Below are positions 3,182 through 13,880 of a stretch of 64,000 bases of DNA, piece by piece. The stretch covers positions 160,001 to 224,000 of the forward strand of contig CAWAGQ010000003.1 in assembly GCA_963781585.1 (NCBI GenBank), given 5' to 3'. This stretch comes from an uncultured Gemmatimonadaceae bacterium. GTDB taxonomy: Bacteria > Gemmatimonadota > Gemmatimonadetes > Gemmatimonadales > Gemmatimonadaceae. Position 1 is the stretch's first letter. The number at the start of each line of letters is the position of its first letter. The notes under the pieces were generated by a model. It saw nothing but the letters and a program-made list of their open reading frames with translations, searched no databases and had not been told where the DNA came from. The translations under genes were made by a program, and so were the position numbers.

Positions 3182-3844
3182 CTAGCGCACGCGCCCCTGC
3201 CCCGGTCCGTTCCGGACCGCGGCCGGGGCGCGTGACACATAGGGGCTCGAGCTGACGTAAAACCGCAGTGGCCAATCGGCTGCCAGCCTGATGCCGATGC
3301 GCGCAGACACTTCCACCTGCGCATCCGGGACCGGTACGCCTTCGAGAATCCGCAGCGAACCGCGCTGGAGCGGAGCACCGTTCAGGCGACCGTCGATCGC
3401 CAGGGCCGCACACAGCCTGGCCGGGCCGCTCGTGAGCTCACGATCCGGCACCGCACCGCGGCGCGCGCGCATGAGATCGAATCCGGCAAGCGGCTCGAGC
3501 GCCCTGATGAGGACCGCGCTCCCATGACCGGCTTCCCGCGTGACCGCGTTGACGCACCAATGCATGCCGTAGATGAAATAGACATAGGCCGTACCGGGAG
3601 GGCCGAACAGGGGCCGGTTCCGCCTGGTCAGCCCGACGGCGGCGTGACAGGCAGGATCGTGCGGGCCCAGATAGGCCTCGGTCTCGACGATGCGCCCGGA
3701 CGCGATACCGTCCGCTGTGCGGGATTCGAGCACGGCGCCCAGCAGGTCACGCGCCACACCCTCCGTCGCGCGGTCATAGAACGCGGGGAGAATGGGGACG
3801 GCCCTGGCGGCGCGCCGCGCACCCAGCGCGGCGCGCGCCATCAT
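3182..3844 (-). CDS. DNA-3-methyladenine glycosylase (MPG/AAG family)
   Basis: GRIVETEAY, AYVYFIYGMHWCVN, AVLIRALEP, SGPARLC, RIGI. Confidence 0.93.
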   Translation of the reverse strand: MMARAALGARRAARAVPILPAFYDRATEGVARDLLGAVLESRTADGIASGRIVETEAYLGPHDPACHAAVGLTRRNRPLFGPPGTAYVYFIYGMHWCVNAVTREAGHGSAVLIRALEPLAGFDLMRARRGAVPDRELTSGPARLCAALAIDGRLNGAPLQRGSLRILEGVPVPDAQVEVSARIGIRLAADWPLRFYVSSSPYVSRAPAAVRNGPGQGRVR

Positions 3845-5592
3845 GCGGCTGCGTCCTTCGGAGTGCTCTTCTTCGACCGGGATCGCCTGGGCTTGGACTT
3901 GGCCTTCTCCCCGGTTGCGCTCTTTGCGGCGTCGGGTCCCTCCGGCGCCGCCGCGGACTCACCCTTGGCTGCGGACGCGACTCGCGCGCGCCCCTTCCCA
4001 CCGCGGCGTGTCCTGGTACGGGGCTTCGCCCCAGCCACCGCTTCCCCTTCCACCGGTGCCGCCTCGGCGACGGCAGGCACGTCGACAACCCCCACCGAAA
4101 GCAGTTCAGGCGGCGGCGCCGACGGGCGCGCACCCGGGCGGCCACGTCCCGGGATTCCGCGGGGACCCATGCCCCGAGGGGCGGGAGCGGCTGCCGTCTG
4201 AGATGGCTGGGCGGATGCGCGAGCAGCCGCGGCCCGATTCAACTGCTCCGCCACCGGAGCTACATCCGCGGGAAGGGCAACTTCATAGTCATCCCCACGG
4301 CGACGGAGATCGATGATCTCGGCGTCGTGCGCGTCGCGGAGCACGCGAGCAAAGTTCCGTTCGCTCAGGCTCTCGCTGTCGCGGCCGAGCAAATCGAAGG
4401 CCCGCCGCCGGAGCGCCACTGCCGGCACCGAGCCGCCATCGGCGATCAGCGCCGCCGTGGTGCGGCGGAGCAGATCGAAGGCCTCCTCTCTCGTCAGGCG
4501 TTCGCCGCCGAGGCCGATCCCGTCGCTGGCTCCGGCGGACACCGCTGTTGCCGCTGGCGCCGGGGTCGAGGCTTCCGCCACTTCGGGAGCGGCCGCCGCG
4601 GCAATCGGCGGAAGGGCCGCACGCTCCTCGCGCTCACGCCCCGGCCCGCGGTCCCGTCCGCCCCGGCGTCCACGCCGGGTTCCCCGCTCCTCACGATCAC
4701 GCGGCTCGGATCCCCGTCCTCCGGGAGGCCGGTGCGATGCGGATGGTTGCGCTCCCCCACCAACGCGATGCGGATGTTCGGACGGCGCAACTTCGAGCTG
4801 GCCGTTCTCCATCTTCGTCACCTTGATGAGTCCCTGCGCCGCCGCCTCCTGACAGAACCGCGAGAACTTCGACATGCCGAGATTCTTCTCGTCGAACCCG
4901 GGGTCGATGTCCTGCATGACCTGCTTGAGGCGATCCGAGCGCATCACGTCGCCGTTCTTCACCATGCGATTGATGGCTTCGGTGACGAGCTCCCAGGGAT
5001 CCCACTTCACGACTTCATCCTCGCCAGCCTTCACCAGCCCGGCCAGGGCGTTGTAGCTGTAATACTCGTCGCAGTTCATGACCAGCAGGTCGCTCGACGA
5101 CTCCCGGATCCCGACACCGATGACGTACTTGCCGTATTCCTTGAGCTTCGTCACCAGACTGGCGAAGTCGGAATCGCCGGAGAGCAGGATGTAGGTTCCG
5201 ATTTCCGAACGCGTGAAGACCAGCTCCATGGCGTCGACCGACAGCCGGATGTCGGTCGCGTTCTTCTTCGACGTCCCATAGGCAGGCGCCATGATCATGT
5301 CGATCGACGCCTCTGCGAGCGGAACGATGTACTGGGGATAGCGGCGCCAGTCAGCGTAGGCGCGCTGCACGGCGACTTTGCCCTTGATGATTTCCGAGCC
5401 GAGGAGGTTGCGGAGTTCACCCGCCAGGTCGGAGCGGATCCCCATCGTCACGTTGTCGAAGTCGATGAGGAGGGCGGCGTTTGGTGCGTGTTGAACCGGG
5501 AGTTGGGAGAGTTGAGGTAGGGCTTGCGGACCCCGATGTATGGGGGTGACCGGCGCGCGCGATGGCGTGTGCCGTGGTAGGCGTTGGTTCAT
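3841..5592 (-). CDS. NYN (LabA/DUF88 PIN-like) domain protein with LOTUS/OST-HTH domains and a low-complexity basic tail
   Basis: LIDFDN, RAYADW, KNATDIRL, LLSGDSDF; LOTUS-like DPGFDEKNLGMSKFSRF; start taken at MNQRL (5592). Confidence 0.85.
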   Translation of the reverse strand: MNQRLPRHTPSRAPVTPIHRGPQALPQLSQLPVQHAPNAALLIDFDNVTMGIRSDLAGELRNLLGSEIIKGKVAVQRAYADWRRYPQYIVPLAEASIDMIMAPAYGTSKKNATDIRLSVDAMELVFTRSEIGTYILLSGDSDFASLVTKLKEYGKYVIGVGIRESSSDLLVMNCDEYYSYNALAGLVKAGEDEVVKWDPWELVTEAINRMVKNGDVMRSDRLKQVMQDIDPGFDEKNLGMSKFSRFCQEAAAQGLIKVTKMENGQLEVAPSEHPHRVGGGAQPSASHRPPGGRGSEPRDREERGTRRGRRGGRDRGPGREREERAALPPIAAAAAPEVAEASTPAPAATAVSAGASDGIGLGGERLTREEAFDLLRRTTAALIADGGSVPAVALRRRAFDLLGRDSESLSERNFARVLRDAHDAEIIDLRRRGDDYEVALPADVAPVAEQLNRAAAARASAQPSQTAAAPAPRGMGPRGIPGRGRPGARPSAPPPELLSVGVVDVPAVAEAAPVEGEAVAGAKPRTRTRRGGKGRARVASAAKGESAAAPEGPDAAKSATGEKAKSKPRRSRSKKSTPKDAAA

Positions 5593-5952: not shown

Positions 5953-6375
5953 TCAGACCCCCATCGCCTTCAGGATAACGCGCTTGGGGCGCTGCCCGTC
6001 CCATTCCCCGTAGAAGACGCGCTGCCACGGACCGAAGTCCAGACGACCGCCGGTCACCGGCACGATCACCTCATGTCCGATGGTCAGGCTGCGCAAATGC
6101 GCGGCCGCATTGTCCTCGCCGGTGCCCGAGTTGTGGCGATACCGCTCCGGATCCCATGGCGCGATTCGACTCTCCAGCCAGTCGAGTATGTCCTTCCAGA
6201 GGCCAGGTTCGTGGTCGTTCACGAACACGCTGGCGGAGATGTGCATCGCGGAGACGAGGACAAATCCCTCGGCGATCCCGGCCTCGGATCGACACTCCTC
6301 GACCGAGTCGGTGATGTCGATGATCTCCTGGCGTTTCCTGGTATTGAACGTCAGGTACGCGGTGTGAGTCTTCAT
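5953..6375 (-). CDS. yjbQ: YjbQ/UPF0047 family protein
   Basis: HISASVFVND, EDNAAAHL, LDFGPWQRVFYGEWDG. Confidence 0.88.
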   Translation of the reverse strand: MKTHTAYLTFNTRKRQEIIDITDSVEECRSEAGIAEGFVLVSAMHISASVFVNDHEPGLWKDILDWLESRIAPWDPERYRHNSGTGEDNAAAHLRSLTIGHEVIVPVTGGRLDFGPWQRVFYGEWDGQRPKRVILKAMGV

Positions 6376-6533
6376 GGCCCTCCCAGAAGGTGGCTCTTGC
6401 ATGCGGAAAACGGTTGAACCGGCCGCCTGGATCGGGAAGAGACGCTTGATTGCCGGGAGTTGACGGCGACAGTCTCGGCCGTTCTCCTCAGCCTTCCGCA
6501 GCGTATCTTGGGACCGGCTGCCCAGGGGTGTCC

Positions 6534-7793
6534 ATGTTGCGGCAACTCGCGTTTCGCAAGCGTCTCCTCGTCGTTCTTTCACTGTTTGCGCTGGTGCCTG
6601 CCATCGCGATGACGGTCGCGTGGGCAGTTGCCGTTCGCACCGTCCTGCTCAAGGTCTCGGAGAACGCGGCGTGGGAGCAGGTTGCGTCTTCCGGCGCGCG
6701 CGCGCTCGATTCGCTGCGCGGAGCACCGCTCTCGTCCGGTCAGCGCGCGGCCCTCAGAGCCCATGAGCAGAACCTGGCGCAGTCGGTCACCCAGGCGCGC
6801 CGATTCGACTTCGTGGCGGTGCGATTCGCCAGGGTGATGATAGTGGGAGCGATTGTCGGACTCGTGCTGCTGGGGGTGCTCGCGTCGCGGGTGGCCGGGC
6901 ATCTCAGCCGGCAGATGAGTCGGCCCCTGAACGAGCTGCTGGGATGGGCCGAACTGATCGCCCGGGGCGCCTCTCTTCCGGCCGAGACTCCACTGCGAGG
7001 CGCGCCGGAGTTCAAGGTGCTGCGCGAGCGCATGCGGACCATGGCAGTGGAGCTCGCCGATGGGCGGGTTCGCGCACTCGAGGCCGAGCGGCTGGGCGCC
7101 TTTCGCGAGAGCGCGCGCCGATTCGCGCACGAATTGAAGAACCCGCTCACGCCGATCCAGTTTGCGCTTGCCCGGCTCGAGCGCGAAGTCCCTCCGGAGC
7201 TTGCCGACACGGTGGACGTCCTTCGGACCGAGACCGGGCGTCTCAACGAGATGTCGAAGAATTTCTCGCAATTCGGCCGGCTGCCCGGAGGGCCGGTTTC
7301 AGAAGTGGATATCGGCGACCTGGTTCGGTACGGCGTTCGGGCAGTGGTGCCGCCCGATCTTTCCGTCTTCATCGAAGTGCCGCCGAATCCGGTCGTCGTG
7401 CGCGGGCAGCACGATGCGCTCCAGCGGGCGCTCACGAACATCCTGCTCAACGCGGTTGACGCCTGCTCGGCGTCGAGCAGCAATGGTGACGGTTCCGGGC
7501 ATCGGGGAGCGATCCACGTCACGGTGGAACTCAGTCCGTTGGGCGGCGGGGAGGGGGTCGCGATCCGGGTTCGGGACACGGGGTGCGGGATTCCGCCGGA
7601 GCGAATCGAAAGCATCTGGGATCCGTACGTGACAAGCAAGCCCGGGGGCACTGGTCTCGGGCTGGCTATCGCGCGACAGACGATCCTGGCACATCATGGG
7701 AGCGTGGCGGCCGAAAGCGCGCCCGGCAGGGGAACGGAGATTCGCCTGGTGCTCCCGGTGGCGGCCGATTCACACCTCAACGTCGAGGCATGA
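6534..7793 (+). CDS. Membrane sensor histidine kinase, NtrY-like (2 TM, HAMP, HisKA, HATPase)
   Basis: H-box FAHELKNPLTPIQ, N-box NILLNAVDA, DTGCGI, GTGLGLAI; two hydrophobic segments. Confidence 0.92.
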   Translation: MLRQLAFRKRLLVVLSLFALVPAIAMTVAWAVAVRTVLLKVSENAAWEQVASSGARALDSLRGAPLSSGQRAALRAHEQNLAQSVTQARRFDFVAVRFARVMIVGAIVGLVLLGVLASRVAGHLSRQMSRPLNELLGWAELIARGASLPAETPLRGAPEFKVLRERMRTMAVELADGRVRALEAERLGAFRESARRFAHELKNPLTPIQFALARLEREVPPELADTVDVLRTETGRLNEMSKNFSQFGRLPGGPVSEVDIGDLVRYGVRAVVPPDLSVFIEVPPNPVVVRGQHDALQRALTNILLNAVDACSASSSNGDGSGHRGAIHVTVELSPLGGGEGVAIRVRDTGCGIPPERIESIWDPYVTSKPGGTGLGLAIARQTILAHHGSVAAESAPGRGTEIRLVLPVAADSHLNVEA

Positions 7794-7797
7794 CCTG

Positions 7798-8091
7798 GTG
7801 ATCTCACCGTTCCTCGTTCCGATCGTGTTCTTCATCTCGCTGCCGGTGACCATCATCGGGGTCATGCTTGCCAGAACACATGCGCGCCGGGTGGAGCAGC
7901 GAGGCACGGGAAGGGAGCTGGGTCCAGAACTCGCGGAGCGTCTGGACCGTATGGAACAGGCCGTGGATGCGATCGCGGTGGAGGTCGAGCGCATCTCCGA
8001 GGCACAACGATTCACGACCCGGCTACTGGCGGGTCGGAGCGAATCACAGGGTCAACGCATCGAGGGGCCGTCATCCGGAGGAAACCGGTGA
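7798..8091 (+). CDS. Small single-TM coiled-coil protein, paralog 1 of 4
   Basis: GTG start just after the kinase stop; N-terminal TM followed by RLDRMEQAVDAIAVEVERISEAQRFTTRLL. Confidence 0.8.
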   Translation: MISPFLVPIVFFISLPVTIIGVMLARTHARRVEQRGTGRELGPELAERLDRMEQAVDAIAVEVERISEAQRFTTRLLAGRSESQGQRIEGPSSGGNR

Positions 8092-8372
8092 ACGAAGACA
8101 TTGTCATCCCAATCGCCGGAATGCTCATGATCATCATTCTGGCGCTGGGCGTCCCGCTGGTCGTGTCTCACGTCAGGCGGACGTCAGCCCGCGACTCAGT
8201 GCGGGGGGAGCCGCGGGACGAGGGGCGACTGGAGCGTATCGAGCAGGCGATCGATGCGATGTCGATCGAGATGGAACGTATTTCGGAGGGCCAGCGGTTC
8301 ATCACCAAGGTGCTCGCCGAGCGTTCGCCCGAGCCGGTGGCGATACCCGCCGCCACCCGCCGGAACGCGTGA
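8088..8372 (+). CDS. Small single-TM coiled-coil protein, paralog 2 of 4
   Basis: GTGA overlap with paralog 1 and GGAGG RBS; TM followed by RLERIEQAIDAMSIEMERISEGQRFITKVL. Confidence 0.85.
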   Translation: MNEDIVIPIAGMLMIIILALGVPLVVSHVRRTSARDSVRGEPRDEGRLERIEQAIDAMSIEMERISEGQRFITKVLAERSPEPVAIPAATRRNA

Positions 8373-8385
8373 ACTTCGAGGTCGC

Positions 8386-8679
8386 ATGTTGATTCAGGGC
8401 GAAGACATCGCGATGGCGGCGATCATCCTCGGCACCGCCAGCGCGACCATCATTTCCCTCGCGCGGTTCTGGTTCAAGCGCCTGGAAATACGTGACCGGG
8501 CGCGAACCGGCGCGGGCGACGTGGACGACCGACTGCTCCGCATCGAGCAGGCGGTGGACGCCATCGCGATCGAAGTCGAGCGCGTGTCGGAAGCACAGCG
8601 ATTTACCACGAAGATGCTGGCTGAAAGGCTGCCCGCGGCCGCCTTGCCAAGCGAGACATCAAGGAGAAGTCCGTCATGA
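8386..8679 (+). CDS. Small single-TM coiled-coil protein, paralog 3 of 4
   Basis: ATG at 8386 with GAGG upstream; TM followed by RLLRIEQAVDAIAIEVERVSEAQRFTTKML. Confidence 0.85.
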   Translation: MLIQGEDIAMAAIILGTASATIISLARFWFKRLEIRDRARTGAGDVDDRLLRIEQAVDAIAIEVERVSEAQRFTTKMLAERLPAAALPSETSRRSPS

Positions 8680-9299
8680 CGCAGGCCACAACCGCGCAGG
8701 CCACACCGCAGGCACCCACGCCGCCGGCGACGCCGGCGCAAACGCTCGATCAACAGATCGAGAAGACGGTCAATGACGCGGTCAACCAGGCGCTGCAGGG
8801 CGCGCAAGCCGGCGCAAACGGGGCCGAGGCGGGTCGGCTGGCAGCTCAGCGCGTGAAGGAGGCGATGGCGCGGGTGCGGGCCGAGATGGACGCGCGGGCC
8901 AACGGCGGGATTGCCGGTGTGGCGCAGGGGCCGGTGTTTCCGGCCGATGTGATCCCGCCGCAGGTCGTGGACATCACCACCGCCTTCTTCATCACCGTGG
9001 CGGTAATCGTCATCGGACTTCCGTTGGCACGGGCGATTGCACGAAGGATGGATCGCCGGGGCGCGCGGGAGGCGGTGGCACCACCACCCGAACTGGCGTC
9101 GCGGCTGGACCGGATCGAGCAGGGGATCGAGGCGATGGCGATCGAAGTGGAGCGAATCTCCGAAGGCCAGCGTTTCGCGACGCGGCTGATGTCGGAGATG
9201 CGGGGCCTGCCGGCGCCGAACCCGATGGCTGGACGAATGGCGCGCCCGGCGAACGAGGCGGAGCCGATTCCGGAACCGGCGGCCGAGCGCCGCGCCTAA
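8676..9299 (+). CDS. Single-TM coiled-coil protein with an N-terminal extension, paralog 4 of 4
   Basis: ATGA overlap and AGGAG RBS; ~100-aa Ala/Gln-rich N-terminus, then TM, then RLDRIEQGIEAMAIEVERISEGQRFATRLM. Confidence 0.85.
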   Translation: MTQATTAQATPQAPTPPATPAQTLDQQIEKTVNDAVNQALQGAQAGANGAEAGRLAAQRVKEAMARVRAEMDARANGGIAGVAQGPVFPADVIPPQVVDITTAFFITVAVIVIGLPLARAIARRMDRRGAREAVAPPPELASRLDRIEQGIEAMAIEVERISEGQRFATRLMSEMRGLPAPNPMAGRMARPANEAEPIPEPAAERRA

Positions 9300-9311
9300 C
9301 GAACTGCGGGC

Positions 9312-10709
9312 GTGGCCAGCGTTCTGATCATCGACGACGAGCCGAATATCCGGCGGATGGTCGGCGCCCTGCTGACCGCGGAAGGATACGAGGTGCGCGA
9401 CGCGCCCGACGGCGCGCGTGGTGTGGCGGTCGCGCTCGAAACGGACCCCGATGCCGCGCTGGTCGACCTGATGATGCCGGGCACCGTGGACGGCATGGGG
9501 GTGCTCTCGGCGCTGCGGGAAAGGCTCCCCGATCTGCCGATCATCATGATGAGCGGGCGTGCCGGGTTGGCGGACGCGGTGCGGGCCACCAAGCTGGGTG
9601 CGCACAATTTTCTGGAGAAGCCGTTGACGCCGGAGGGAGTGCTGCTGGCGCTTTCCTCGGCGATCGAGTTGCGACGGGCGCGCCGTGAAGCGCAGGCGCT
9701 GCGGGCCGACCTCGGCCTCTCGATCGAAATGGTCGGTGGCAGCACCGGGATGCGCCGCCTGCGCGAACTCATCGGCCGGATTGCCCCGACCGACGCGCGG
9801 GTGCTGATCTCGGGCGAGTCGGGGACGGGGAAGGAGCTGGTGGCGGTCGCGATCCACAACGGGAGTGCGCGGCGCGACCGTCCGTTCGTGCGCGTGAACT
9901 GCGCCGCCATTCCACGCGACCTGGTGGAGAGCGAGATGTTCGGTCACGAGCGGGGGAGTTTCACCGGCGCGACTGAGCGGAGGATCGGACGGTTCGAGCT
10001 GGCACATCGCGGCACGCTCCTGCTCGACGAGGTCGGCGACCTGGGACCCGAGGCGCAGGCGAAACTCCTGCGGGCGATCGAAGCACGGGAGATCGAACGC
10101 GTGGGCGGCACCAAGCCCATTCCGATCGACGTGCGTGTCATCGCCGCGACCAACAAGGACCTCCAGCGGACGGTTCGCGAGGGTGCATTTCGCGAGGACC
10201 TGCTGTTCCGTCTGAACGTGATCCCGGTGGAGGTGCTCCCGCTGCGCGAGCGCCCCGACGACATTCCCGATCTCGTCAGGCACTTCTCCGCGTTGCACCG
10301 CGTGCGGACCGGACAGGCGTTTCCCGCCTGGCAGAGCGACGCGCTCTCCGCCCTCCAGCGATACCGATGGCCGGGCAACGTGCGGGAACTGGCGAACATC
10401 GTGGAGCGGTTGGCGATCCTCCACGCCGGCCAGCCGGTGACGGCCCATCAGGTTGCGCAGGTGCTGCCGATCGAGGAATCGCCGGGCACGATGGCGCCGG
10501 CCACGCTGCCCGACCCCACCGGCCTCGAGGCGCCCCTCACCGACCTGCTCGACGAGTACGAGCGCCTGCTGATCACGCGGGCGCTCACCTCGGCGGGAGG
10601 CAACGTGGCCGAAGCGGCACGACGCCTGCGGACCGACCGGCCGAACCTCTACCGTCGAATGAAGCGCCTGGGGATCGCGCTCGAGGCGGGGATGACACAC
10701 ACGGCGTGA
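9312..10709 (+). CDS. Sigma54-dependent response regulator (NtrC/NtrX family: REC-AAA+-Fis HTH)
   Basis: IIDDE...DLMMPG receiver; GESGTGKE; ESEMFGHERGSFTGA; LLLDEVGD; WPGNVREL; C-terminal HTH GNVAEAARRL. Confidence 0.95.
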   Translation: MASVLIIDDEPNIRRMVGALLTAEGYEVRDAPDGARGVAVALETDPDAALVDLMMPGTVDGMGVLSALRERLPDLPIIMMSGRAGLADAVRATKLGAHNFLEKPLTPEGVLLALSSAIELRRARREAQALRADLGLSIEMVGGSTGMRRLRELIGRIAPTDARVLISGESGTGKELVAVAIHNGSARRDRPFVRVNCAAIPRDLVESEMFGHERGSFTGATERRIGRFELAHRGTLLLDEVGDLGPEAQAKLLRAIEAREIERVGGTKPIPIDVRVIAATNKDLQRTVREGAFREDLLFRLNVIPVEVLPLRERPDDIPDLVRHFSALHRVRTGQAFPAWQSDALSALQRYRWPGNVRELANIVERLAILHAGQPVTAHQVAQVLPIEESPGTMAPATLPDPTGLEAPLTDLLDEYERLLITRALTSAGGNVAEAARRLRTDRPNLYRRMKRLGIALEAGMTHTA

Positions 10710-10848
10710 CCTCGGCGGGGGACGCCGGCGAGTTGCCCGACGGTGCGCGTCGCCTGAACTTGTTGAGGTGCCGACCGTTCGCGCGGGGCGGCGATGGGGT
10801 ACGCATCGTGCCAGCACGCGCTGACGTCCGCTTCGACACGGAGCCGTC

Positions 10849-12603
10849 ATGCGTCGCCTAACCCTGCTCCTGCCCGCGCTGGTCGTTCCGCTCGCCGCCC
10901 CCGGGCAGGTGCCCTCGGTCCAGCGCGAGACCGTTCAGGTGGTCGAGTCCCGGAGTATCCCGCGCGACATCGCCGACGACGTGTCACGCCTGTTCAATGC
11001 CTCCTCCACAACGCGCCTCACGGGGACGCAGCAGATCGACAGCGGCCAGGTGGTTTCGCAGGACATCGCCATTCTCGACGGGTCGCTCACAATCGCCGGC
11101 CACGTCGCCGGGCGGCTGGTGGCGATCAACTCCGCGGTGGTCCTGCTGCCGGCGGCACGGATCGATCGTGACGTGACGATTCTCGGCGGTACGTTCGACT
11201 CCCGCGATCCGGACAACGTTACCGGCGACGTGCGGGTCTACGGCGATCGCGTCAACGTGACCCACGAGGACGATCGCATCGTTGTGCACGGCGACCCGGA
11301 CAGCGATCAGTGGTTCCGCCGGCACAGGCGATGGGAGACGCGCGCGTGGAGCGATCTGCGGCTGGTCTCCGCCCGAACGTACAGCCGGGTGGAAGGGCTG
11401 CCCCTCCTGCTCGGGCCGCTGTTCGGCCGCGAGTTCTCCTGGGGCCGGGTGTCAGTGGACGCACTGGGAATCATCCGGAGCGCCGACCGCTTCGACTGGA
11501 AGAGCGAGAATCTCGGGCACAGCCTGAAGACCGAGATCAGCGTCGGGAAGCGCGGCGGGATTCGCGTTGGCGGCCAGCTGTTCGACCTGGTGGATGCGGT
11601 CGAGCCCTGGCAGCTGTCGGACGCGGAGAACGGCCTTGCGTCGTTCTTTCTGCACCGTGACTATCGCGACTACTTCGATCGACATGGTGGCGCCGTCTAC
11701 AGCACGCTGTTCCTGGGGAACACCACCGATCTCACGCTGCGCTACAGCGCCGAGCGCTGGGGATCGCGTGACGCCCGCACGCCGTTCACGCTCTTTCGCC
11801 AGACGCAGGACTGGCGTCCGAATCCGCAGCTCGACGACGGCACGGTGCATCTGGTGAACCTGACGCTGCGGTACGACACGCGGAACGACGAACTCGAGCC
11901 GCGGTCGGGCTGGTACGTCAGCGCCGACTTCGAACACGGAAGTGGCCAGAGCCTGATTCCGGGACCGGCCTCCTGGGCGGCGCGCTTCGGTGCGCTGGAC
12001 CCGATCTACAATCGCGGGCTGCTGGACGTGCGACGCTACAATCGCGTCGCACCGGACGGGCAGCTCAACCTGCGATTGGTTCTGGGCGGATGGTTGGGCG
12101 GTGACGACCTCCCGCTGGAGCGTCGGTTCTCGCTGGGCGGTCCCGGCACGTTGCCCGGGTACGATTTCCGGCGGATCGAAGGGGGGACCGACTACTGGCA
12201 GTGTTCCGCACCGCCGGCCGCTCCATCCGGCCCTCCTCCGGCGGCGTATCCGGCGGGTCTTCCGGCGCAGTGCCAGCGGATCGCGCTCGCGCAAGCCGAG
12301 TACCGCGGCGTGATTCACGTGGATCCGTTAGGCATACTTGGCGAGGAGCGGGTGCGGCGGCGGAGCGGCTGGGGACGGACCGCCGAGTGGGTCGTGTTCG
12401 CGGACATGGGACGGGGTTGGCTGGTAGGCGAGCGGTTCGGAGCCCTGCGGTACGGAAGCAATGCCATCCCGCCGCTCAACACGTTTCGCGGTGATCTCGG
12501 GGTCGGGATCCGGCTCGATGACGTCGGGGTGTACGCCGCCAAGGCGCTGTCCAACTCCCACACACCGGTGAACTTCTTCGTGCGCCTTCGGCCGCGCTTC
12601 TAG
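10849..12603 (+). CDS. Exported Omp85/BamA-TamA-like beta-barrel protein with an N-terminal beta-repeat (bactofilin-like) region
   Basis: Signal peptide; YDTRN, RFSLGGPGTLPGYDF, VFADMGRGW; C-terminal FFVRLRPRF; N-terminal repeats like GSLTIAGHVAGRLVAINS. Confidence 0.7.
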   Translation: MRRLTLLLPALVVPLAAPGQVPSVQRETVQVVESRSIPRDIADDVSRLFNASSTTRLTGTQQIDSGQVVSQDIAILDGSLTIAGHVAGRLVAINSAVVLLPAARIDRDVTILGGTFDSRDPDNVTGDVRVYGDRVNVTHEDDRIVVHGDPDSDQWFRRHRRWETRAWSDLRLVSARTYSRVEGLPLLLGPLFGREFSWGRVSVDALGIIRSADRFDWKSENLGHSLKTEISVGKRGGIRVGGQLFDLVDAVEPWQLSDAENGLASFFLHRDYRDYFDRHGGAVYSTLFLGNTTDLTLRYSAERWGSRDARTPFTLFRQTQDWRPNPQLDDGTVHLVNLTLRYDTRNDELEPRSGWYVSADFEHGSGQSLIPGPASWAARFGALDPIYNRGLLDVRRYNRVAPDGQLNLRLVLGGWLGGDDLPLERRFSLGGPGTLPGYDFRRIEGGTDYWQCSAPPAAPSGPPPAAYPAGLPAQCQRIALAQAEYRGVIHVDPLGILGEERVRRRSGWGRTAEWVVFADMGRGWLVGERFGALRYGSNAIPPLNTFRGDLGVGIRLDDVGVYAAKALSNSHTPVNFFVRLRPRF

Positions 12604-12626
12604 TGACGTTCCGACTTGGCTGAGCC

Positions 12627-13265
12627 GTGCGACCGCACGTCATTCTCGCCGCCCTCCTGTTCGCGGTGCCGGCGGCCGCGCAGGGCGGCCCGAAGCTCGA
12701 GATCACACTCCCGTCGCGTGACGCCCTGGCCACCGAGGGGCCGCGCGTGCGCGCTGTGAACGTGCTGTCGGAGCCGACGGTCCGGGATCTCCTGAACAGC
12801 GGATTCCCGGCACGCCTGCATTTCCGCGTCGAGCTCTGGTCTTCGGGCGGGTTGTTCAACGCGATGCGCGAAAGCGCCGAATGGGACGTGGTGGTGAGCT
12901 ACGACGCGCTCGGCAAGCGTTATCGCCTGGTGAGGCTGAACGACGGGCATGTCGTGTCGTCGCTGCAGTTCGTGAACTTCAGCGCCGCGCTGACGGAAGC
13001 GGAGCGCCCCTATCGTGTACCCATCGCCGCGCGCCGCCAGCGCGATCGACAGTACTACAATGCCGTGCTCGACGTCGAGACGATGTCGCTGGGAGACCTC
13101 GACGAGTTGCAGCATTGGCTGCACGGTGAACTCCAACCCGCGGTACGCGGGCAGCGGAATCCCGGCACGGCGATCGGACGGGGGCTGCGCGAGTTGTTTG
13201 CGCGACTGCTGGGCGCGGATCGTCGGAGCCTGGAGATCCGGTCGCGGACGTTTCAGGTGCCGTGA
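12627..13265 (+). CDS. Exported protein, DUF4390-like
   Basis: Signal peptide; LLNSGFPARLHFRVELW...VSYDALGKRY resembles DUF4390; lies in an NtrYX-like locus. Confidence 0.55.
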   Translation: MRPHVILAALLFAVPAAAQGGPKLEITLPSRDALATEGPRVRAVNVLSEPTVRDLLNSGFPARLHFRVELWSSGGLFNAMRESAEWDVVVSYDALGKRYRLVRLNDGHVVSSLQFVNFSAALTEAERPYRVPIAARRQRDRQYYNAVLDVETMSLGDLDELQHWLHGELQPAVRGQRNPGTAIGRGLRELFARLLGADRRSLEIRSRTFQVP

Positions 13266-13277
13266 ACGACGCGAACG

Positions 13278-13880
13278 TCAGCCGCCGCGCAGGGCGCGCG
13301 GCCGGCGATGCTCGAGATCCTCGAGCTGATGCAGGACCGTCGCGCCGTAGAAGAGCCGGATGTACTTGGCCTGAATCGGCGTGAGGCGGCGAACGGCCCA
13401 GCTGAGGTGGACGAAATGGGGCTCCACCGGGTGCGCCAGAGGATGCATCCCGATCTCTTCAGGCAACTTGTTTCCCTTGCGCGTGTTGCAGGGGCTGCAC
13501 GCCGTCACCACGTTGGTCCAGTCGTTGGTCCCGCCACGCGACAGCGGCACCAGATGATCGCGGGTGAGTGACTCGCGCGGCTTGAGCTCGGCCAGCGAAC
13601 GCCCGCAGAACTGGCAGCAGTAGTGGTCCCGCGCGAAGAGGAACGTGTTGGTGACCTGGCGGCGGAAACGGCGCGGCACATGTACGAAGTTCGTGAGGCG
13701 GATGACGGCCGGCCGCGGGATCGCGAGATGCTCGGACCGGACGGGGCGTTCCCCATCGGCCTCGACAATCTGCGCCTTCCCATCGATCACCAGGCGCAGG
13801 GCGCGCTTCAGGGGAACCATGGTGAGGGGTTCAAACGACGCATTGAGCGCCAGGCAGCCGACGATCACGCGGACCTCCAC
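13278..13880 (-). CDS. HNH endonuclease (McrA-like)
   Basis: LALNASFEPL, RDHYCCQFCG, TRDHLVPLSRGG...WTNVVTACSPCNTRKG. Confidence 0.92.
   Translation of the reverse strand: MEVRVIVGCLALNASFEPLTMVPLKRALRLVIDGKAQIVEADGERPVRSEHLAIPRPAVIRLTNFVHVPRRFRRQVTNTFLFARDHYCCQFCGRSLAELKPRESLTRDHLVPLSRGGTNDWTNVVTACSPCNTRKGNKLPEEIGMHPLAHPVEPHFVHLSWAVRRLTPIQAKYIRLFYGATVLHQLEDLEHRRPRALRGG

Follow-up and report, generated by a model that had tools for sequence, protein, structure and literature searches.

Small transmembrane coiled-coil proteins of Gemmatimonadia: candidate PspB-like partners of PspA encoded within a kinase-sigma54 regulator operon

The window, a stretch of 64,000 nucleotides of DNA from an uncultured Gemmatimonadaceae bacterium, contains an operon in which the gene for a sensor histidine kinase and that for a sigma54-dependent response regulator are separated by an array of four tandem genes, each encoding a small membrane protein (paralogs 1-4). 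By sequence, these four paralogs belong to a large, unnamed family that is present throughout the Gemmatimonadia. Homologous genes in related families lie directly upstream of pspA, the gene for the membrane-repair protein PspA (bacterial ESCRT-III), and genomes of the Gemmatimonadaceae that have lost the family have often lost PspA as well. The reading favored here, with a probability of roughly 0.55, is that the paralogs are PspB-like membrane partners of PspA whose genes have moved into another operon. The original prediction had placed them in a sensor or modulator of the adjacent kinase-regulator pair; the evidence suggests that kinase modulation is less likely than a partnership with PspA.

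The four paralogs and their family

Paralog 1 (97 amino acids, 7798..8091), paralog 2 (94 amino acids, 8088..8372), paralog 3 (97 amino acids, 8386..8679), and paralog 4 (207 amino acids, 8676..9299) are all encoded on the + strand. Open reading frames and hydropathy confirm four genes at these positions with one transmembrane (TM) segment each, as originally described; the single hydrophobic segment has a Kyte-Doolittle value of 2.07-2.64 over 19 residues. The TM of paralog 1 is followed by a predicted cytoplasmic helix, and the shared motif lies at about 7933-8037, 8220-8324, 8524-8628, and 9096-9200 in paralogs 1 to 4, respectively. Paralog 4, whose TM spans residues 97-115, carries an N-terminal extension of about 95 amino acids that is Ala/Gln/Pro-rich and poorly conserved. 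Packing is tight: there are intergenic gaps of 4, 13, and 12 bases plus two 4-base overlaps (GTGA at 8088-8091 and ATGA at 8676-8679), and both the overlaps and the four motifs had been read correctly. In all four proteins the 15 residues preceding the TM contain no Lys or Arg, while the following 15 contain 3-6; because this bias sits after the TM, the C-terminus would be cytoplasmic, giving an N-out topology. An AlphaFold2 model of paralog 3 (residues 1-86) consists of two long helices, 3-40 and 43-81, with a mean predicted local distance difference test score (pLDDT) of 87.2 and a predicted template modeling score (pTM) of 0.42. Several solo copies of about 200 amino acids (G000 C4, L001:7708-8322, and C13, L003:7710-8372; L016; L059-L061; L063) have a long coiled-coil hairpin ahead of the TM. 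A signal peptide is not evident in these proteins, and by the charge rule the hairpin would face the periplasm.

Pairs of paralogs share 20-26 identities over the 35-residue motif (57-74%). When a hidden Markov model (HMM) of the motif was run against the genome in six frames, 8 matches reached an E of 2.8e-6 or lower, and the best of the rest had an E of 1.8; given this gap, the copies do not arise by chance. Four of the eight are in the window and the other four are spread over three further loci whose neighbours are unrelated, and thus the motif is not restricted to this operon. Relative to a genome of the same genus, motifs 1-4 contain 0, 1, 0, and 1 amino-acid changes and 5, 7, 10, and 5 synonymous changes, a total of 2 residue changes versus 27 synonymous ones. 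Between paralogs, 9-15 of the 20-26 codons that specify the same residue differ. Since this is about half, the duplications are old, and a recent tandem duplication or gene conversion is ruled out. The synonymous excess and the codon divergence bear out the proposal of an old duplication with a selected motif, and at the level of sequence the four paralogs are real, old, selected genes. In addition, position-specific paralog subfamilies recur across genera.

A protein search returned 596 relatives, all unnamed apart from one stray label and, where an organism was given, mostly from Gemmatimonadaceae. A profile built from 57 members matches 4141 clusters (50% identity) at E 0.001. Genomes were grouped as f1 (Gemmatimonadaceae, the source lineage), f2 and f3 (its two sister families), and f4-f7 (four more distant families). 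The f1 sample (n=221) includes three unpublished genomes (G008, G230, and G285), each with the family, PspA, and the kinase; these were also counted in the tallies of 41 relatives given below, and none of the claims depends on them alone. The family is present in 213 of the 221 f1 genomes at 1-13 copies each (a second match in G004, at 14 bits, was not scored as a copy), and sister families have up to 18 copies per genome. All 12 genomes from other orders of the class contain both the family and PspA. A search of 15 genomes from other classes found the family in none of them; PspA was over the cut-off in one, with a PspF-PspA-type locus. The 80 best-matching named loci come from Gemmatimonadota metagenome-assembled genomes wherever a taxon is given.

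That the motif is not recognisable as a named family, as first stated, agrees with the database searches. No Pfam model scored above its cut-off for the four paralogs or for the 57 and 56 aligned members of the two subfamilies compared below, and none of the 18950 NCBIfam models did so for the four paralogs or the 57 members. The best match in a search of solved structures (E 0.0066 over 22 positions) was judged to be chance. Nothing describing the family turned up in a literature search, which left subscription papers mostly outside its reach; Gemmatimonadota combined with PspA gave no papers, and Gemmatimonas combined with phage shock gave only unrelated ones.

Genomic positions and loss together with pspA

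The first lead toward pspA was a weak match in an f2 genome, located within three small genes directly 5' of a CesT-like gene and pspA. The kinase-operon and pspA-adjacent subfamilies are homologous, as judged by comparison of profiles. HHalign aligned the f1 members (57 rows) with the pspA-adjacent members (56 rows) over 70 columns with a probability of 97.1 and an E of 6e-11; the score was 53, versus at most 17.5 in 60 column shuffles that kept the register. An HMM built from pspA-adjacent genes alone ranked window paralog 4 (E 8.1e-7) and then paralog 1 (E 1.4e-5) at the top of the genome, and single copies from f6 score 33-38 bits on the f1 profile versus 17-29 on the f2/f3 profile. The pspA-adjacent arrays of Gemmatimonadota have an ERxDFxERLL motif and the window paralogs a diverged one of the ERISEGQRF type; by profile the two are the same family in different genomic homes.

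These homes are complementary. Kinase-operon loci were chosen via DUF4390 or Omp85 (part of the first set also via a motif match on the same contig), and G023 and G072 were dropped from the counts because their kinase-to-regulator span is incomplete. Of 37 f1 loci, 31 have the kinase and regulator genes separated by 1-4 copies, and the remaining 6 have no insert. In f2 and f3 the two genes abut (insert in 0 of 12 loci; likewise 0 of 1 in f5). Across the order, 18 of the 49 loci that span both genes have a complete operon and no insert. Upstream of CesT-pspA, arrays of 2-10 TM-coiled-coil genes are found in 14 of 14 f2/f3 loci, and one copy precedes pspA in 5 of 5 f5/f6 loci; no member was found upstream of pspA in 7 f4/f7 loci or in 32 f1 loci. 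The pspA of the window genome lies on the same contig, about 143 kb from the array, and is preceded by a CesT_Tir_1 gene (PF22550, E 2.1e-19). Given the taxonomy, the simplest history starts with the family next to pspA, with f1 later giving up that place and acquiring the one in the kinase operon; this is an argument from parsimony. In a tree that used 34 sampled f1 rows and left out two rows, the f1 rows fall on one side of an unstarred branch whose support in the Shimodaira-Hasegawa-like approximate likelihood ratio test (SH-aLRT) is 94.

Many other copies are scattered among unrelated neighbours, and 60 proteins adjacent to solo copies revealed no common family beyond pairs or ordinary transporters. 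A single member of the wider family is, however, conserved between bshC and murJ in f2, f3, f4, and f7 (L051:6780-7061; L053-L055; L247-L253). This copy is apparently missing from the window genome, where no more than about 125 bases separate the bshC match from the murJ match (C4). The original prediction had held that scattered homologues without a conserved tie to the kinase would count against it; scattered copies do occur, but the tie is conserved in a lineage-specific way, in the 31 f1 loci. A second, distant PspA-like gene was also observed (G000 C14:71499-72149, L111; also in G001, G002, and G009), in an operon with genes for a substrate-binding protein and an ABC transporter.

Among the 221 f1 genomes, the family was not found in 8, PspA in 10, and the kinase in 5. 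Five genomes lack the family as well as PspA, versus 0.36 expected (Fisher 3e-6), and one lacks the family as well as the kinase (Fisher 0.17). The five co-loss genomes (G113, G115, G225, G280, and G295) represent three genera, are 97-100% complete, all have the kinase, and have no copy ahead of the regulator. In one of them, G280, only a 37-codon remnant with the motif end is left (L241:1495-1608). CesT_Tir_1 was not found in these five genomes by a search that was positive in 3 of 5 others, and Band 7 is over its cut-off in three of the five. The family persists without CesT where PspA is present (in G098, and at the pspA locus itself in G012, G017, G025, G027, and G029), so CesT is not a required partner.

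These distributions bear on the proposal that the four proteins form a hetero-oligomeric sensor or modulator dedicated to the two-component system, acting on the TM or HAMP region of the kinase. Its appeal lies in the position between kinase and regulator, which is conserved in Gemmatimonadaceae, and in the precedent of NtrYX-type systems, which employ accessory proteins, among them PlrP, a DUF4390 protein (PMC13001219). Yet the insert is missing in 12 of 12 sister-family and 6 of 37 f1 loci; sister families have their members at pspA rather than at the kinase; genomes with 1-13 copies have many of them elsewhere with unrelated neighbours; and the operon already contains a candidate accessory protein of the DUF4390 type. 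Moreover, 7 of the 8 family-less genomes retain the kinase, a co-loss of 1 in 8 versus 5 in 8 for PspA. A role in sensing for, or modulating, this kinase-regulator pair is thus at best weakly supported, and a modulator dedicated to the kinase is very improbable.

Likeness to PspB and a possible role with PspA

PspB (PF06667/TIGR02976) and the paralogs have in common an N-terminal TM, a cytoplasmic helical domain, and a length of about 75-100 amino acids; like PspB, the family has homologues that adjoin pspA, and operonic duplicates occur. Both the CesT-PspA dyad and duplicated PspB genes were described by Ravi et al. 2024 (PMC11237479). The partners of the CesT/Tir-PspA dyad given there are band-7/flotillin, YqiJ, spermine synthase, ATP-grasp, and TPM proteins; the window family is not among them, and the string "Gemmat" occurs in neither the main text nor one supplement file. 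The end of the pspA-adjacent helix can be lined up with E. coli PspB by eye, and HHalign aligns it with Sphingomonas PspB. As a side observation, a Sphingomonas locus (L116:5391-6271) carries, behind pspABC, three small TM-coiled-coil genes without a name, an alphaproteobacterial parallel to the multi-copy layout.

PspB is also the nearest named match. It was the most frequent weak match in NCBIfam (6 of 57 members, best E 0.0094), paralog 1 reached 14.9 bits on TIGR02976 (E 0.024; cut-off 51.7), and in the Atlas the named cluster closest to each of the two subfamilies is PspB (0.76 and 0.77, values that serve as leads only). PF06667 was over its cut-off in 0 of 5 genomes and matched 4 of 56 sister-array members, with a best E of 7e-4. 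Unlike PspB, the family has a coiled coil that is about one heptad longer with a motif of its own, occurs at 1-13 copies per genome, lacks PspC and PspF at the locus, and in f1 is detached from pspA, as at all 32 pspA loci. Because the cut-offs were missed and the profile comparison with PspB, given below, stayed at shuffle level, the paralogs are best described as working like PspB rather than as being PspB.

PspC (PF04024) was not found in the window genome and is present in 7 of 41 relatives. The C-terminal domain of PspC (TIGR02978) resembles the paralogs in being a cytoplasmic coiled coil that ends in a conserved helix; the family has no counterpart of the N-terminal domain. The idea that the motif corresponds to the PspC C-terminus found no support, as only 2 of 57 members gave weak TIGR02978 matches (best E 0.084). 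Nor does the locus conform to the classical PspFABC system, with its PspF-type activator and sigma54 promoter at pspA. The guess that the array is Psp-like is supported, in that homologues directly precede CesT-pspA and the family is lost with pspA; the cut-offs for PspB were not reached.

As described in PMC5596341, PspB and PspC form an inner-membrane complex, and the cytoplasmic domain of PspC binds PspA in Yersinia. By analogy with the binding of PspA by the PspBC complex under stress (PMC5596341), each paralog would consist of an N-out TM anchor in the inner membrane, a basic segment next to the membrane, a linker, and a coiled coil in the cytoplasm that would mediate self- or hetero-assembly, with the conserved helix end docking PspA and so recruiting or regulating it. 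The paralogs would in this way most likely act as anchors or sensors for membrane repair by PspA, and would fill the job of PspB and PspC in a lineage that is mostly without both. The array would borrow the transcription of an envelope-related kinase operon, its partner still being the unlinked PspA. A complex prediction for PspA (1-205) with paralog 3 (20-86) scored 0.01 against a mark of 0.32, in a run without folded controls, and counts neither for nor against such contact.

A number of observations weigh against this partnership or against the proposed move. HHalign against PspB gave probabilities of 26% and 46% and scores of 23-25 versus shuffle maxima of 22-23, the second alignment being in the wrong register; the PspB profile was shallow (30 rows, effective number of sequences 2.5). 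The f2/f3 count is partly circular, as the profile was built from those genes. The tree is unrooted, and the f1 copies could stem from the bshC-murJ home, which is not linked to pspA. That 31 of 37 loci retain copies inside the kinase operon is not accounted for by partnership with PspA alone. PspA is kept where the family was not found in G018, G108, and G182, and five genomes (94-96% complete) have the family where PspA was not found. The Fisher value of 3e-6 overstates the co-loss, because some of the five genomes are kin and represent about three independent events. Finally, streamlining confounds the co-loss: no genomes in the sample are smaller than four of these five (1.8-2.4 Mb), and four of the five lack HSP20 as well.

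Several of these points would fit proteins that work without PspA, as protectors or adaptors whose helix self-assembles or binds another partner, such as the CesT-like chaperone or a protein of envelope synthesis like MurJ. The pspA neighbourhood would then reflect shared stress regulation, and the co-loss, streamlining. There is a precedent in that PspB and PspC protect against mislocalised secretins in the absence of PspA (PMC5596341), and the conserved bshC-murJ copy, the loss of HSP20 in four of the same five genomes, and the three genomes with PspA but without the family all point the same way. On the other hand, congeners of the pspA-less genomes typically have 3-7 scattered copies, and all of these are gone, which would take several deletions; the family persists without CesT where PspA is present; and other small genomes (G233, G112, G199, and G200; 2.5-2.7 Mb) keep both the family and PspA. 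Action independent of PspA is therefore a tentative alternative, clearly less likely than the PspA partnership.

The host operon and the regulator's likely target

The kinase (419 amino acids, 6534..7793, + strand) has TMs at residues 11-29 and 98-116, followed by HisKA and HATPase_c domains, and an orthologue is present in 216 of 221 f1 genomes. NtrYX-type kinases have a PDC, HAMP, and PAS architecture. The host kinase lacks it: only about 68 residues separate the TMs, giving a short periplasmic part, the HAMP match is weak (E 0.06), and no PAS match was found in the domain scan (for the PDC domain of the NtrYX-type kinase, see PMC13001219). With no NCBIfam cut-off reached, the designation NtrY-like holds only loosely. 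The regulator (465 amino acids, 9312..10709, + strand) has a receiver, an AAA+ domain, and a Fis helix-turn-helix, and the GSFTGA loop is present as reported. It scores 405 bits on the NtrC model and 395.9 on NtrX (NF051870; cut-off 600), both under cut-off, and 266 bits on the PspF-type model TIGR02974 (cut-off 444); its receiver domain is present. In the pspA-less genome G225 (L245), the regulator match starts at residue 135, about 290 bases past the end of the kinase match, and the receiver domain may be truncated.

Downstream, also on the + strand, are genes for an Omp85-superfamily outer-membrane protein (584 amino acids, 10849..12603; PF01103 E 5.6e-10, and synteny) and a PlrP-like DUF4390 protein (212 amino acids, 12627..13265; PF14334 E 9.2e-10, and conserved synteny), the latter found in 38 of 41 relatives. 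The kinase-regulator-Omp85-DUF4390 operon is conserved across the order. A kinase, an NtrC-type regulator, and a DUF4390 gene in one cluster recall the NtrYX/PlrSR systems (PMC13001219); unlike in those systems, the DUF4390 gene lies downstream, behind Omp85 and a sigma54 site, and the array is inserted. On the opposite strand the operon is flanked by genes for an NYN-domain protein with a long low-complexity tail (3841-5445) and a small protein whose sequence shows an HNH-like motif (13278-13868); the cores of both are 70-90% identical across the order. A scan of 6200-13400 for sigma70 promoters and terminators found none.

A putative sigma54 -24/-12 promoter (GG-N10-GC, 10798..10811, + strand) lies about 50 bases upstream of the Omp85 gene, and rpoN is present in the source genome. 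The pattern GGYAY-N6-TGC, refined from an earlier scan on an overlapping set of loci, occurs in 30 of 92 orthologous omp85 upstream regions (shuffles: mean 1.1, maximum 5). With wrong spacings it is found in 0-1 of the same regions, and before eight other gene classes in 0-1. The -12 element of the conserved site is NTGC, not TTGC, across the order. Since a conserved sigma54-type site precedes omp85, the downstream omp85-DUF4390 genes are probably driven by the regulator whether the array is present or not. The pattern was found before CesT in 0 of 20 cases, before uvrA in 0 of 11, and before pspA in 1 of 19, which is not above background, and no positional signal was seen ahead of the kinase or CesT, or where arrays or solo copies start. 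The regulator as a substitute for PspF is therefore unsupported.

This result bears on a dual role, in which the link to PspA was kept and wiring to the kinase was added, so that membrane damage would be coupled to omp85-DUF4390 via a phosphorelay that replaces PspF. The tight packing, retention in 31 of 37 f1 loci, the recurring position-specific subfamilies, a regulator target that is likely an outer-membrane gene, and the short periplasmic part of the kinase are all consistent with such wiring, as is the location of the array beside kinase or regulator in 77 of the best 80 named loci (a selection that favors the paralogs of the window itself). Against it stand the 18 of 49 loci in which the operon is complete without the insert, the lack of a sigma54 site of this pattern before CesT or uvrA with one in 19 before pspA, and the loss of the array with pspA while the kinase stays. 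A dual role is unlikely, and so, to the same degree, is the full circuit that it would imply: array genes moved to a kinase-sigma54 operon to give a Psp circuit without PspF or PspC, in which the paralogs would sense damage, recruit PspA, and signal to the Omp85 genes.

The relocated and diverged subfamily, its distribution complementary to the pspA-adjacent arrays, its co-loss with pspA, and the sigma54 target all appear to be new. The conserved sigma54 site provides a first candidate target for an unnamed two-component system. The location of the array also illustrates that operon position can mislead, as genes inside a kinase operon track an unlinked pspA. Beyond Proteobacteria, Firmicutes, and Actinobacteria, little is known about the way PspA/ESCRT-III is recruited to membrane damage; the family described here is a candidate adaptor for this process, and its short conserved helix would be testable as a peptide.

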